DNA from: Escherichia phage T7
Length of the DNA: 36,786 nt
Direction: 5' to 3' (one strand)
Sequence record: MZ375274.1
A program made the position numbers and the translations under genes. Position 1 is the first letter of the stretch; the number at the start of each line of letters is the position of its first letter. The notes below the pieces were generated by a model. That model did no database searches, had not been told where the DNA came from, and saw nothing but the letters and a program-made list of their open reading frames with translations. Positions 7,024 through 36,786 of this stretch are shown here, one piece after another.

Positions 7024-7046
7024 TTTTACGACTCACTAAAGGAGGT
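7024..7046 (+). promoter_or_regulatory. T7 promoter phi1.5 with altered -16/-15 (TTTTACGACTCACTAAAGGAGGT)
   Basis: Matches the T7 promoter core from -14 to +6, but -16/-15 are TT not AA; looks like a deletion junction. Confidence 0.6.
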
Positions 7047-7475: not shown

Positions 7476-7817
<342 letters not shown>

Positions 7818-7884: not shown

Positions 7885-8583
7885 ATGGCTAAGAAGATTT
7901 TCACCTCTGCGCTGGGTACCGCTGAACCTTACGCTTACATCGCCAAGCCGGACTACGGCAACGAAGAGCGTGGCTTTGGGAACCCTCGTGGTGTCTATAA
8001 AGTTGACCTGACTATTCCCAACAAAGACCCGCGCTGCCAGCGTATGGTCGATGAAATCGTGAAGTGTCACGAAGAGGCTTATGCTGCTGCCGTTGAGGAA
8101 TACGAAGCTAATCCACCTGCTGTAGCTCGTGGTAAGAAACCGCTGAAACCGTATGAGGGTGACATGCCGTTCTTCGATAACGGTGACGGTACGACTACCT
8201 TTAAGTTCAAATGCTACGCGTCTTTCCAAGACAAGAAGACCAAAGAGACCAAGCACATCAATCTGGTTGTGGTTGACTCAAAAGGTAAGAAGATGGAAGG
8301 CGTTCCGATTATCGGTGGTGGCTCTAAGCTGAAAGTTAAATATTCTCTGGTTCCATACAAGTGGAACACTGCTGTAGGTGCGAGCGTTAAGCTGCAACTG
8401 GAATCCGTGATGCTGGTCGAACTGGCTACCTTTGGTGGCGGTGAAGACGATTGGGCTGACGAAGTTGAAGAGAACGGCTATGTTGCCTCTGGTTCTGCCA
8501 AAGCGAGCAAACCACGCGACGAAGAAAGCTGGGACGAAGACGACGAAGAGTCCGAGGAAGCAGACGAAGACGGAGACTTCTAA
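7885..8583 (+). CDS. 2.5: Single-stranded DNA-binding protein gp2.5
   Basis: 232-aa ORF with an acidic C-terminal tail ending ...EEADEDGDF. Confidence 0.95.
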   Translation: MAKKIFTSALGTAEPYAYIAKPDYGNEERGFGNPRGVYKVDLTIPNKDPRCQRMVDEIVKCHEEAYAAAVEEYEANPPAVARGKKPLKPYEGDMPFFDNGDGTTTFKFKCYASFQDKKTKETKHINLVVVDSKGKKMEGVPIIGGGSKLKVKYSLVPYKWNTAVGASVKLQLESVMLVELATFGGGEDDWADEVEENGYVASGSAKASKPRDEESWDEDDEESEEADEDGDF

Positions 8584-9003
8584 GTGGAACTGCGGGAGAA
8601 AATCCTTGAGCGAATCAAGGTGACTTCCTCTGGGTGTTGGGAGTGGCAGGGCGCTACGAACAATAAAGGGTACGGGCAGGTGTGGTGCAGCAATACCGGA
8701 AAGGTTGTCTACTGTCATCGCGTAATGTCTAATGCTCCGAAAGGTTCTACCGTCCTGCACTCCTGTGATAATCCATTATGTTGTAACCCTGAACACCGTT
8801 CCATAGGAACTCCAAAAGAGAACTCCACTGACATGGTAAATAAGGGTCGCTCACACAAGGGGTATAAACTTTCAGACGAAGACGTAATGGCAATCATGGA
8901 GTCCAGCGAGTCCAATGTATCCTTAGCTCGCACCTATGGTGTCTCCCAACAGACTATTTGTGATATACGCAAAGGGAGGCGACATGGCAGGTTACGGCGC
9001 TAA
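8584..9003 (+). CDS. 2.8: Gene 2.8 HNH-endonuclease-like protein (GTG start)
   Basis: 139-aa ORF with Cys/His-rich block KGYGQVW...CHRV...HSCDNPLCCNPEH; paralog of the gene 7.7 product. Confidence 0.8.
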   Translation: MELREKILERIKVTSSGCWEWQGATNNKGYGQVWCSNTGKVVYCHRVMSNAPKGSTVLHSCDNPLCCNPEHRSIGTPKENSTDMVNKGRSHKGYKLSDEDVMAIMESSESNVSLARTYGVSQQTICDIRKGRRHGRLRR

Positions 9004-9888: not shown

Positions 9889-11694
<1,806 letters not shown>

Positions 11695-11769
11695 CTTCTG
11701 ACAGGATTCTTGACAGTTGTTTCATATGAAGAGATTGTTAAGTCACGATAATCAATAGGAGAAATCAAT

Positions 11770-13884
11770 ATGATCGTTTCTGACATCGAAGCTAACGCCC
11801 TCTTAGAGAGCGTCACTAAGTTCCACTGCGGGGTTATCTACGACTACTCCACCGCTGAGTACGTAAGCTACCGTCCGAGTGACTTCGGTGCGTATCTGGA
11901 TGCGCTGGAAGCCGAGGTTGCACGAGGCGGTCTTATTGTGTTCCACAACGGTCACAAGTATGACGTTCCTGCATTGACCAAACTGGCAAAGTTGCAATTG
12001 AACCGAGAGTTCCACCTTCCTCGTGAGAACTGTATTGACACCCTTGTGTTGTCACGTTTGATTCATTCCAACCTCAAGGACACCGATATGGGTCTTCTGC
12101 GTTCCGGCAAGTTGCCCGGAAAACGCTTTGGGTCTCACGCTTTGGAGGCGTGGGGTTATCGCTTAGGCGAGATGAAGGGTGAATACAAAGACGACTTTAA
12201 GCGTATGCTTGAAGAGCAGGGTGAAGAATACGTTGACGGAATGGAGTGGTGGAACTTCAACGAAGAGATGATGGACTATAACGTTCAGGACGTTGTGGTA
12301 ACTAAAGCTCTCCTTGAGAAGCTACTCTCTGACAAACATTACTTCCCTCCTGAGATTGACTTTACGGACGTAGGATACACTACGTTCTGGTCAGAATCCC
12401 TTGAGGCCGTTGACATTGAACATCGTGCTGCATGGCTGCTCGCTAAACAAGAGCGCAACGGGTTCCCGTTTGACACAAAAGCAATCGAAGAGTTGTACGT
12501 AGAGTTAGCTGCTCGCCGCTCTGAGTTGCTCCGTAAATTGACCGAAACGTTCGGCTCGTGGTATCAGCCTAAAGGTGGCACTGAGATGTTCTGCCATCCG
12601 CGAACAGGTAAGCCACTACCTAAATACCCTCGCATTAAGACACCTAAAGTTTGTGGTATCTTTAAGAAGCCTAAGAACAAGGCACAGCGAGAAGGCCGTG
12701 AGCCTTGCGAACTTGATACCCGCGAGTACGTTGCTGGTGCTCCTTACACCCCAGTTGAACATGTTGTGTTTAACCCTTCGTCTCGTGACCACATTCAGAA
12801 GAAACTCCAAGAGGCTGGGTGGGTCCCGACCAAGTACACCGATAAGGGTGCTCCTGTGGTGGACGATGAGGTACTCGAAGGAGTACGTGTAGATGACCCT
12901 GAGAAGCAAGCCGCTATCGACCTCATTAAAGAGTACTTGATGATTCAGAAGCGAATCGGACAGTCTGCTGAGGGAGACACAGCATGGCTTCGTTATGTTG
13001 CTGAGGATGGTAAGATTCATGGTTCTGTTAACCCTAATGGAGCAGTTACGGGTCGTGCGACCCATGCGTTCCCAAACCTTGCGCAAATTCCGGGTGTACG
13101 TTCTCCTTATGGAGAGCAGTGTCGCGCTGCTTTTGGCGCTGAGCACCATTTGGATGGGATAACTGGTAAGCCTTGGGTTCAGGCTGGCATCGACGCATCC
13201 GGTCTTGAGCTACGCTGCTTGGCTCACTTCATGGCTCGCTTTGATAACGGCGAGTACGCTCACGAGATTCTTAACGGCGACATCCACACTAAGAACCAGA
13301 TAGCTGCTGAACTACCTACCCGAGATAACGCTAAGACGTTCATCTATGGGTTCCTCTATGGTGCTGGTGATGAGAAGATTGGACAGATTGTTGGTGCTGG
13401 TAAAGAGCGCGGTAAGGAACTCAAGAAGAAATTCCTTGAGAACACCCCCGCGATTGCAGCACTCCGCGAGTCTATCCAACAGACACTTGTCGAGTCCTCT
13501 CAATGGGTAGCTGGTGAGCAACAAGTCAAGTGGAAACGCCGCTGGATTAAAGGTCTGGATGGTCGTAAGGTACACGTTCGTAGTCCTCACGCTGCCTTGA
13601 ATACCCTACTGCAATCTGCTGGTGCTCTCATCTGCAAACTGTGGATTATCAAGACCGAAGAGATGCTCGTAGAGAAAGGCTTGAAGCATGGCTGGGATGG
13701 GGACTTTGCGTACATGGCATGGGTACATGATGAAATCCAAGTAGGCTGCCGTACCGAAGAGATTGCTCAGGTGGTCATTGAGACCGCACAAGAAGCGATG
13801 CGCTGGGTTGGAGACCACTGGAACTTCCGGTGTCTTCTGGATACCGAAGGTAAGATGGGTCCTAATTGGGCGATTTGCCACTGA
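11770..13884 (+). CDS. 5: T7 DNA polymerase (gene 5)
   Basis: 704-aa [34 protein letters not shown]... with the 3'-5' exonuclease motif at its N-terminus; ends ...NWAICH. Confidence 0.97.
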
Positions 13885-13929
13885 TACAGGAGGCTACTCC
13901 AAAGGCATAAAACTATAGGAGAAATTATT

Positions 13930-14229
13930 ATGGCTATGACAAAGAAATTTAAAGTGTCCTTCGACGTTACCGCAAAGATGTCGTCTGACGTTCAGGCAAT
14001 CTTAGAGAAAGATATGCTGCATCTATGTAAGCAGGTCGGCTCAGGTGCGATTGTCCCCAATGGTAAACAGAAGGAAATGATTGTCCAGTTCCTGACACAC
14101 GGTATGGAAGGATTGATGACATTCGTAGTACGTACATCATTTCGTGAGGCCATTAAGGACATGCACGAAGAGTATGCAGATAAGGACTCTTTCAAACAAT
14201 CTCCTGCAACAGTACGGGAGGTGTTCTGA
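13930..14229 (+). CDS. 5.5: Gp5.5 (H-NS-binding protein)
   Basis: 99-aa ORF MAMTKKFKVSFDVTAKMSSDVQAILEKDM... Confidence 0.88.
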   Translation: MAMTKKFKVSFDVTAKMSSDVQAILEKDMLHLCKQVGSGAIVPNGKQKEMIVQFLTHGMEGLMTFVVRTSFREAIKDMHEEYADKDSFKQSPATVREVF

Positions 14230-14438
14230 TGTCTGACTACCTGAAAGTGCTGCAAGCAATCAAAAGTTGCCCTAAGACTTTCCAGTCCAACTATGTACGG
14301 AACAATGCGAGCCTCGTAGCGGAGGCCGCTTCCCGTGGTCACATCTCGTGCCTGACTACTAGTGGACGTAACGGTGGCGCTTGGGAAATCACTGCTTCCG
14401 GTACTCGCTTTCTGAAACGAATGGGAGGATGTGTCTAA
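14229..14438 (+). CDS. 5.7: Gp5.7
   Basis: 69-aa ORF MSDYLKVLQAIKSCPKTFQSNYVRNNASLVAEAASRGH..., ATG overlaps the 5.5 stop. Confidence 0.85.
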   Translation: MSDYLKVLQAIKSCPKTFQSNYVRNNASLVAEAASRGHISCLTTSGRNGGAWEITASGTRFLKRMGGCV

Positions 14439-16209: not shown

Positions 16210-16610
16210 TGTCTGAGTTCACATGTGTGGAGGCTAAGAGTCGCTTCCGTGCAATCCGGTGGACTGTGGAACACCTTGGGTTGCCTAAAGGATTCGAAGG
16301 ACACTTTGTGGGCTACAGCCTCTACGTAGACGAAGTGATGGACATGTCTGGTTGCCGTGAAGAGTACATTCTGGACTCTACCGGAAAACATGTAGCGTAC
16401 TTCGCGTGGTGCGTAAGCTGTGACATTCACCACAAAGGAGACATTCTGGATGTAACGTCCGTTGTCATTAATCCTGAGGCAGACTCTAAGGGCTTACAGC
16501 GATTCCTAGCGAAACGCTTTAAGTACCTTGCGGAACTCCACGATTGCGATTGGGTGTCTCGTTGTAAGCATGAAGGCGAGACAATGCGTGTATACTTTAA
16601 GGAGGTATAA
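16209..16610 (+). CDS. 7: Gp7
   Basis: 133-aa ORF MSEFTCVEAKSRFRAIRWTVEHLGLPKGFEG... Confidence 0.85.
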   Translation: MSEFTCVEAKSRFRAIRWTVEHLGLPKGFEGHFVGYSLYVDEVMDMSGCREEYILDSTGKHVAYFAWCVSCDIHHKGDILDVTSVVINPEADSKGLQRFLAKRFKYLAELHDCDWVSRCKHEGETMRVYFKEV

Positions 16611-16613
16611 GTT

Positions 16614-16913
16614 ATGGGTAAGAAAGTTAAGAAGGCCGTGAAGAAAGTCCCCAAGTCCGTTAAGAAAGTCGTTAAGGAAGGGGCTAGTCCGGTTAAACAG
16701 GTTGCTGGCGGTCTAGCTGGTCTGGCTGGTGGTACTGGTGAAGCACAGATGGTGGAAGTACCACAAGCTGCCGCACAGATTGTTGACGTACCTGAGAAAG
16801 AGGTTTCCACTGAGGACGAAGCACAGACAGAAAGCGGACGCAAGAAAGCTCGTGCTGGCGGTAAGAAATCCTTGAGTGTAGCCCGTAGCTCCGGTGGCGG
16901 TATCAACATTTAA
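16614..16913 (+). CDS. 7.3: Gp7.3 virion/tail-associated protein
   Basis: 99-aa Lys/Ala/Gly-rich ORF MGKKVKKAVKKVPKSVKKVVKEG... Confidence 0.85.
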   Translation: MGKKVKKAVKKVPKSVKKVVKEGASPVKQVAGGLAGLAGGTGEAQMVEVPQAAAQIVDVPEKEVSTEDEAQTESGRKKARAGGKKSLSVARSSGGGINI

Positions 16914-36455: not shown

Positions 36456-36485
36456 GTATGCTTATTGTTGAACCTACTGCGGCAT
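36456..36485 (+). pseudogene. 19.5: Gene 19.5 remnant (9 codons then stop)
   Basis: atgcttattgttgaacctactgcggcatag resembles the start of remembered gp19.5 but lacks 5 nt after the ATG and the gene body. Confidence 0.5.
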
Positions 36486-36499
36486 AGAGTCAAGTCCTA

Positions 36500-36644
36500 A
36501 GGTATACCCATAAAGAGCCTCTAATGGTCTATCCTAAGGTCTATACCTAAAGATAGGCCAGTGTCACCTAAAGAGGGTCTTAGAGAGGGCCTATGGAGTT
36601 CCTATAGGGTCCTTTAAAATATACCATAAAAATCTGAGTGACTA
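36500..36644. repeat. Right-end short direct repeats (CCTAAAG/CCTAAGG motifs) before the terminal repeat
   Basis: Repeated cctaaggt.../cctaaag motifs between 36500 and 36644; non-coding. Confidence 0.5.
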
Positions 36645-36786
36645 TCTCACAGTGTACGGACCTAAAGTTCCCCCATAGGGTGTACCTAAAGCCCAGCCAA
36701 TCACCTAAAGTCAACCTTCGGTTGACCTTGAGGGTTCCCTAAGGGTTTGTCTTTGGGTGTTACCTTGAGTGTCTCTCTGTGTCCCT
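36645..36786. repeat. Right terminal direct repeat
   Basis: Exact copy of bases 1-142; window ends at its last base. Confidence 0.9.

Follow-up and report, generated by a model that had tools for sequence, protein, structure and literature searches.

In reference phage T7, the primase-helicase gene (gene 4) is separated from the DNA polymerase gene (gene 5) by a module of small genes and promoters, whereas in the T7 genome analysed here the end of gene 4 runs almost directly into the ribosome-binding site of gene 5. The locus raises the question of how this module was lost, whether by design, in nature, by recombination in the laboratory or through an error of assembly, and of what its loss leaves for the expression of gene 5 and for the phage.

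Identity of the Genome

The window, by which we mean the whole stretch of DNA that was analysed (MZ375274.1, 36,786 bp), is the complete genome of a laboratory genome-reduced T7 mutant. Terminal repeats were found at both of its ends (1-142 and 36645-36786), and the sequence between them was collinear with reference T7 (V01146, 39,937 bp), the sole interruptions being seven deletions. In T7 coordinates, these cover genes 0.4-0.6 (~1342-1903), gene 1.4 (7608-7763), gene 1.7 (~8197-8728), gene 3.8 (11254-11545), genes 4.3-4.7 in the gap between genes 4 and 5 (13278-14296), gene 5.3 (16483-16820), and gene 19.5 (~39378-39608). The main collinear segments matched V01146 at 99.7-99.9% identity, and two end segments with small indels matched at 98.1% and 96.7%.

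The closest record in the phage collection was MZ375278.1, annotated as "Mutant Escherichia phage T7 clone T7_230S" (36,783 bp), which aligned with the window from end to end at 99.89% identity, with 33 mismatches, 7 gaps, and no large indel. The T7_230S series was produced by CRISPR/Cas9 iterative phage genome reduction (CiPGr; Yuan et al., Nucleic Acids Res 2022, PMC9825161), whereby T7 went through hundreds of passages on Cas9-expressing cells with a guide library directed against non-essential genes. Clones from this work are named by transfer number and by plaque size, large (L) or small (S), and one of them, T7_300L, had a burst size that had fallen from 143 to 2.1 (PMC9825161). All seven deletions, the gene 4-gene 5 junction (ACAGGATTCTTGACAG), and the shortened 142-bp terminal repeat of T7_230S match the window, which differs from that clone in about 10 private substitutions, in an extra C at 11669, and in a differently arranged stretch near the right end (36536-36624). 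Look-ups of the exact gp4 and gp5 proteins gave no match. From the deletions and junctions held in common with the deposited clones, we infer that the window belongs to the CiPGr series.

Extent of the Deletion between Genes 4 and 5

Direct string comparison with V01146 showed that the window tracks T7 up to 13277 and picks up again at 14297, so that T7 13278-14296, a stretch of 1,019 bp, is missing. In the reference, gene 4 stops at 13265 and gene 5 starts at 14353, and the 1,087 bp between them hold phi4.3, gene 4.3, gene 4.5, phi4.7, and gene 4.7. An earlier reading of the DNA made from the sequence only (the sequence-only reading) had placed about 1.1 kb with these same elements here in T7 and had called for alignment to the reference. 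That comparison bore it out, the T7 spacer being anything but short. The deletion takes out phi4.3, gene 4.3, gene 4.5, phi4.7, and all of gene 4.7 except its last 38 nt.

The lost genes were not found elsewhere. When the T7 proteins were compared with the whole window by tblastn, gp4.3 gave no match, gp4.5 gave no significant match, and gp4.7 matched at the junction alone, over its final residues. The deleted DNA, compared with the window by blastn, gave nothing elsewhere beyond T7-promoter consensus matches. The phi4.7 sequence had no match anywhere in the window, and the sole copy of the phi4.3 sequence was phi1.6, which is identical to phi4.3. Relocation of 4.3, 4.5, or 4.7 within the genome was considered and set aside, as these tblastn and blastn searches recovered nothing more than promoter-consensus matches. 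The proposed loss of genes 4.3 and 4.5 together with promoters phi4.3 and phi4.7 was thus upheld by alignment, by tblastn, and by the promoter search. The absence of gene 4.7 was correct for most of the gene, but its last 38 nt (T7 14297-14334) are retained at 11714-11751.

The junction, genes 4 and 5, the intervals between them, and the promoters named below as intact are all on the + strand. The spacing of the two genes depends on which stop codon is counted. The sequence-only reading had given 75 bp (11695-11769), and this is what follows the open reading frame stop at 11692-11694; from the native gene 4 TGA at 11699-11701, the spacer is 68 bp. The longer count arises because the extra C at 11669 frameshifts gene 4 into the earlier stop, moving the left coordinate from 11702 to 11695. 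The annotation of MZ375278.1 agrees with 68 bp (CDS end at 11700, next CDS start at 11769), and the other sibling records align alike. The gene 5 ribosome-binding sequence had been quoted accurately: aataggagaaatcaat directly precedes the ATG at 11770. The 1,019-bp deletion itself has already been published (PMC9825161) and deposited many times, and it is not a new natural feature.

The Junction Lies in a Native Direct Repeat

In wild-type T7, the 4.3-4.7 module is flanked by an imperfect 13-bp direct repeat, ACAGG[A/T]TTCTTGA, with 12 of 13 positions identical. The left copy, ACAGGATTCTTGA, lies at T7 13265-13277, its first A being the final base of the gene 4 TGA; the right copy, ACAGGTTTCTTGA, lies at T7 14284-14296, within gene 4.7 and 38 nt before the end of that gene. 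The window holds a single hybrid copy, ACAGGATTCTTGA, at 11701-11713, and continues from there, with no filler bases, into what stands downstream of the right-hand copy in T7. Because ACAGGATTCTTGA is joined in this way to sequence from beyond the right-hand copy, the crossover in the window falls in the exact 7-bp TTCTTGA (11707-11713). The junction has what is looked for in a deletion between short direct repeats, namely both endpoints in a parental repeat, one copy kept, and no filler.

To place this repeat among the others available, exact repeats were listed under two conditions: the left copy had to lie after the gene 4 stop but ahead of the gene 4.3 start, and the right copy upstream of the gene 5 ribosome-binding site. 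The TTCTTGA pair, extended to 12 of 13, was the longest exact repeat whose deletion takes out all three genes. One longer repeat was found, the 10-bp promoter core common to phi4.3 and phi4.7, but recombination there would remove only 4.3 and 4.5.

The deletion was common to 28 deposited records in the phage collection, whose junctions fell into three groups. Sixteen carry A at the mismatched position and are identical to the window. Another eight, e.g. T7_70S and T7_5t3, carry T (ACAGGTTTCTTGA), which puts their crossover in ACAGG. The remaining four are later recombinant derivatives (PV223880-83) with A and, one base further on, a C-to-T change. The position of the crossover therefore varies within the repeat from record to record (A in 16, T in 8). 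Two crossover positions in one imperfect repeat are the mark of short-homology recombination, and the two junction variants could reflect at least two events or one heteroduplex resolved both ways.

The designed deletions in the same genome look different. Those of 1.4, 3.8, and 5.3 have 0 bp of homology at their junctions; the 1.4 deletion is an exact removal of the coding sequence, and that of 5.3 starts at the first base of gene 5.3. Such zero-homology junctions have the look that plasmid-templated edits should have. The joints left by the losses of 19.5 and 0.4-0.6, which were also undesigned (PMC9825161), are untidy, unlike the clean, repeat-mediated joint of the 4.3-4.7 deletion. At the gene 19.5 joint (36457-36483), a 27-bp retained or inserted stretch was seen (TATGCTTATTGTTGAACCTACTGCGGC), and at the gene 0.4-0.6 joint (1323-1334), clustered substitutions.

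Origin of the Deletion

We consider it about 90% probable that the short gene 4-gene 5 gap came about in a CiPGr phage through a short-repeat recombination deletion that was then selected under Cas9. Recombination or slippage between the two copies of the repeat, whether as replication slippage or as single-strand annealing following a Cas9 break, would have removed the 1,019 bp, and the product would then have been selected as a CRISPR-escape deletion, one that removes all Cas9 targets in 4.3, 4.5, and 4.7 in one step without touching gene 4 or the ribosome-binding site of gene 5. The authors of the CiPGr study named gp4.3-4.7, with gp0.3-0.6 and gp19.5, as T7 large-fragment losses "that we did not design" and suggested that some of the undesigned losses were CRISPR-escape mutations (PMC9825161).

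A designed deletion would mean that a Cas9 cut was repaired from a plasmid homology template (a "cassette-gene") that removed 4.3-4.7 as a block. The CiPGr method does use repair templates of 2 x 50 bp (PMC9825161), and the window genome does carry the designed deletions of 1.4, 3.8, and 5.3 with no junction homology. The endpoints here, however, are off the gene boundaries and inside a pre-existing native repeat, and a single template would not give the two crossover points seen among the siblings; because some siblings cross over on the other side of the mismatch, short-repeat recombination is preferred to a designed edit. Other clones of the series, e.g. T7_120L, have separate losses of 4.3 and 4.7, with a 270-nt coding sequence of the size of gene 4.5 (89 amino acids) still in place, which is the outcome expected from per-gene design. 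As the published account also counts this loss as undesigned, a templated origin was rejected as very improbable.

We give still less credence to a natural T7-like variant that never had the 4.3-4.7 module or lost it outside the laboratory. The module does vary among relatives, a Vi06-like Salmonella phage having no 4.7 and only 72 nt between 4.5 and 5, but the remainder of the window matches T7 at ~99.9% identity and has six further deletions in common with laboratory clones. When a 251-bp query spanning the short junction was searched against the phage collection, all 45 records in which one place covered at least 80% of it were laboratory "Mutant" T7. Homologues of gp4.5 were found in 809 phage records, and the sampled natural relatives have 0.6-1.3 kb between genes 4 and 5. 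With the junction seen solely in laboratory mutants and the module kept by natural relatives, this reading was discarded. An artefact of assembly or sequencing, in which 1 kb was collapsed across the repeat, is about as improbable as a natural variant. At least one suspicious single-base indel nearby (11669) puts the quality of the sequence in some doubt, yet a 13-bp repeat is far too short for a read-based assembly to collapse across, the deletion is present in 28 separately deposited genomes, and the loss was also seen by population sequencing (PMC9825161).

Comparison with Other T7 Deletions and with Natural Relatives

The repeat-mediated deletion favoured here resembles classical spontaneous deletions of T7, which reportedly form between short direct repeats, with one copy kept and non-essential DNA lost (Studier and colleagues; Masker and colleagues). 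In both cases, the endpoints lie in short parental repeats and one copy is retained; the window differs in that Cas9 cleavage imposed the selection, in place of heat or chelator stability or packaging constraints, and in that the repeat is imperfect (12/13). The engineered PHEIGES "T7-mini" (PP384394.1; Nat Commun 2024, PMC10933291) is alike in content, as 4.3, 4.5, and most of 4.7 were removed with genes 4 and 5 intact. Its deletion, in contrast, was designed, has other endpoints and a 20-bp synthetic bridge (AATGCAAAGCTATTAGCGCG), and keeps genes 4 and 5 160 bp apart, against 68 bp in the window. T7-mini is viable and forms clear plaques on E. coli B (PMC10933291).

The natural Teseptimavirus phages that were sampled (13a, Bas103, and the Vi06-like CHRF_10025) have the same slot between primase-helicase and polymerase. 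In phages 13a and Bas103, 4.3, 4.5, and 4.7 are all present, and CHRF_10025 is naturally without gene 4.7 (L013 816-889), which means that the module is dispensable in nature too. All three differ from the window in that they retain 4.3- and 4.5-like genes, and in none of the sampled natural phages did gene 4 abut gene 5. TTCTTGA was found at both flanks of the module in 13a (L011 266 and 1246, there as part of a 9-bp exact repeat, TTCTTGACG) and in Bas103 (L012 266 and 1285), although the right-hand copy is in coding sequence, so its conservation may reflect the protein alone.

As an example, the locus has modest value: Cas9 pressure on an accessory block was resolved at the best native short repeat and not by per-gene edits.

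Expression of Gene 5 after the Deletion

Downstream of the junction, the 38-nt gene 4.7 remnant (11714-11751) ends at the TAA at 11749-11751 and has neither a start codon nor a promoter. It is followed by the native 18-nt spacer between 4.7 and 5 (11752-11769), identical to T7 14335-14352 and carrying the Shine-Dalgarno sequence AGGAG at 11757-11761. Gene 5 then starts at the ATG at 11770 and runs at full length to 13884 (704 amino acids). The 56 nt upstream of the ATG are the same as in T7, so the translation signals of gene 5 are unchanged.

The sequence-only reading had proposed that gene 5 loses its nearest upstream promoter and relies on read-through from phi3.8, phi4c, and earlier promoters, and both points agree with what was found. 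Phi4.3 and phi4.7, the two promoters nearest to gene 5 in T7, are both gone; phi4c (11089-11111, an exact 23-nt match to T7 12654-12676) is now the nearest upstream, and phi3.8 (9890-9912, an exact 23-nt match to T7 11163-11185) is likewise intact. Class II transcription in T7 continues as far as Tphi, which follows gene 10 and is annotated in the reference T7 record; gene 5 should therefore still receive transcripts from phi1.1A, 1.1B, 1.3, 1.6, 2.5, 3.8, and 4c. From this arrangement of promoters, transcription of gene 5 would depend solely on read-through, from phi4c or from class II promoters that precede it. The RNase III site R4.7, which carries no annotation in the T7 record used but which the classical map puts between gene 4.5 and phi4.7, would be inside the deleted interval, and genes 4 and 5 should therefore now share a common unprocessed mRNA.

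A new RNA structure, promoter, or terminator acting on gene 5 was also considered, and fold and site searches ruled it out. The RNA fold of 11680-11800 was no more stable than that of shuffled sequences (z = -0.41), and the one local hairpin in the junction region is already present in T7, at the end of gene 4.7. The junction held no sigma-70-like site, and neither the junction nor the spacer held a terminator, the two terminator-like matches falling outside both.

The Gene 4 Tail and the Replisome

Gene 4A extends from its native ATG at 10000 to the native TGA ending at 11701, but its frame is broken at 11669, where the window has one C more than T7 (GAGTCAACAG to GAGTCCAACAG), and the reading frame ends at 11694. 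The encoded gp4 equals T7 gp4A except for A83S (window 10246, gene 4 codon 83) and the frameshift from codon 558, which swaps the last nine residues, TDWSNDTDF, for NRLVQRH followed by a stop. In gp4, the acidic tail at the C terminus, with its terminal Phe566, tethers T7 DNA polymerase to the helicase. If the extra C is true, this tail, including Phe566, is replaced by a basic heptapeptide.

The insertion was absent from every other aligned record, and no collection record matched the 11669 region without an indel. T7_230S has a T-to-C change at the base that adjoins the insertion (MZ375278.1 position 11668), so that three states of the site were observed: TCA in wild type, TCCA in the window, and CCA in T7_230S. 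The extra C could have come from a sequencing error or from CRISPR escape, or it could be a real frameshift, later restored in T7_230S; of these, a sequencing error is more likely than a real change. CRISPR escape was examined through a candidate protospacer (CACACTCAGAGTCAACAGAC, PAM TGG) that would put the change at seed positions 8-9; it was given little evidential weight, because ~80% of genome positions are estimated to lie in the seed of some NGG site.

Two substitutions were found in gene 5. G295C (window 12652, codon 295) is private to the window, and K404T (window 12980, codon 404), common to the window and T7_230S, sits in a loop (residues 401-404) that is specific to T7 and implicated in primer use. 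Residues 294-302 of gp5 are part of the thioredoxin-binding domain (PMC9198812). A83S, G295C, and K404T are all in parts of the replisome that mediate the interplay of helicase/primase and polymerase. The extra C together with the two gp5 substitutions could represent replisome co-adaptation in a crippled, long-passaged line. With CCA in T7_230S set beside TCA in wild type and TCCA in the window, T7_230S is possibly a frame-restoring derivative. The fuller proposal, that the extra C is real, that the phage survives with help from G295C and K404T in the polymerase, that T7_230S could have restored the frame, and that the window would represent an evolved replisome working without the canonical helicase-polymerase tail contact, strikes us as improbable. 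The frameshift would be of interest to replisome specialists only if confirmed.

Consequences for Host Interactions

Dispensability of 4.3, 4.5, and 4.7 in laboratory E. coli has been established already. The sequence-only reading had cited gp4.5 as a reported Lon inhibitor that blocks toxin-antitoxin abortive infection, so that its loss could narrow host range, and the gp4.5-Lon link does stand in the literature: as restated in PMC11482910, gp4.5 counters the sanaAT toxin-antitoxin system by inhibiting Lon, and gene 4.5 matters more on UTI strains expressing CcdAB (PMC11482910). Gp4.3 and gp4.5 also had weak effects against a RADAR system, plating being ~70% lower with 4.3 or 4.5 deleted (PMC11482910). 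Judged from this literature, the deletion would cost the phage the counter-defence provided by gp4.5 (Lon/toxin-antitoxin) and by gp4.3 and gp4.5 (RADAR), a loss that should matter solely on hosts with such systems. The 809 phage records with gp4.5 homologues are spread across the Studiervirinae, which fits a conserved accessory role. The term "host range" is absent from the main text of the CiPGr study (PMC9825161). A clone with this deletion offers a ready-made strain without gp4.3 and gp4.5 for tests on Lon-dependent toxin-antitoxin systems and on RADAR.

Other Changes in the Genome

Several further differences from T7 were recorded. The 292-bp deletion of gene 3.8 fuses the first 10 codons of that gene in frame to gene 4A (9952-10002), and the longest gene 4 open reading frame starts at 9952 owing to this remnant. 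The gene 3.8 start signals could thus give a primase-helicase with a 16-residue N-terminal extension; in GenBank, sibling gene 4 is annotated from the upstream ATG, i.e. from the fused gene 3.8 start.

Among the promoters, phi1.5 (7024-7046) has its first three bases clipped by the deletion of the gene 1.4 coding sequence (TAATACGACTCAC to TTTTACGACTCAC) and is probably weakened. Phi10 (19983) has a G-to-T change at the +1 start base, common to the window and T7_230S, which could lower capsid gene transcription in low-burst clones. Phi13 (24342) has a G-to-A change at -11 in the window only, and phiOL (387) has an A-to-G change at its annotated start site, making it a closer match to the 23-bp consensus.

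Each terminal repeat measures 142 bp instead of the 160 bp of T7 through an 18-bp loss (T7 99-116), and the two copies are identical. Just left of the right-hand repeat (36536-36624), there is an 8-bp loss (T7 39684-39691) together with a cluster of differences from T7_230S. Lastly, the doubtful overlapping gene 4.2 open reading frame (11423-11701) has changed in every deletion clone, since its final codons lay past the left breakpoint; in the window, the extra C shifts this frame into the native gene 4 frame, and it ends at the gene 4 stop.
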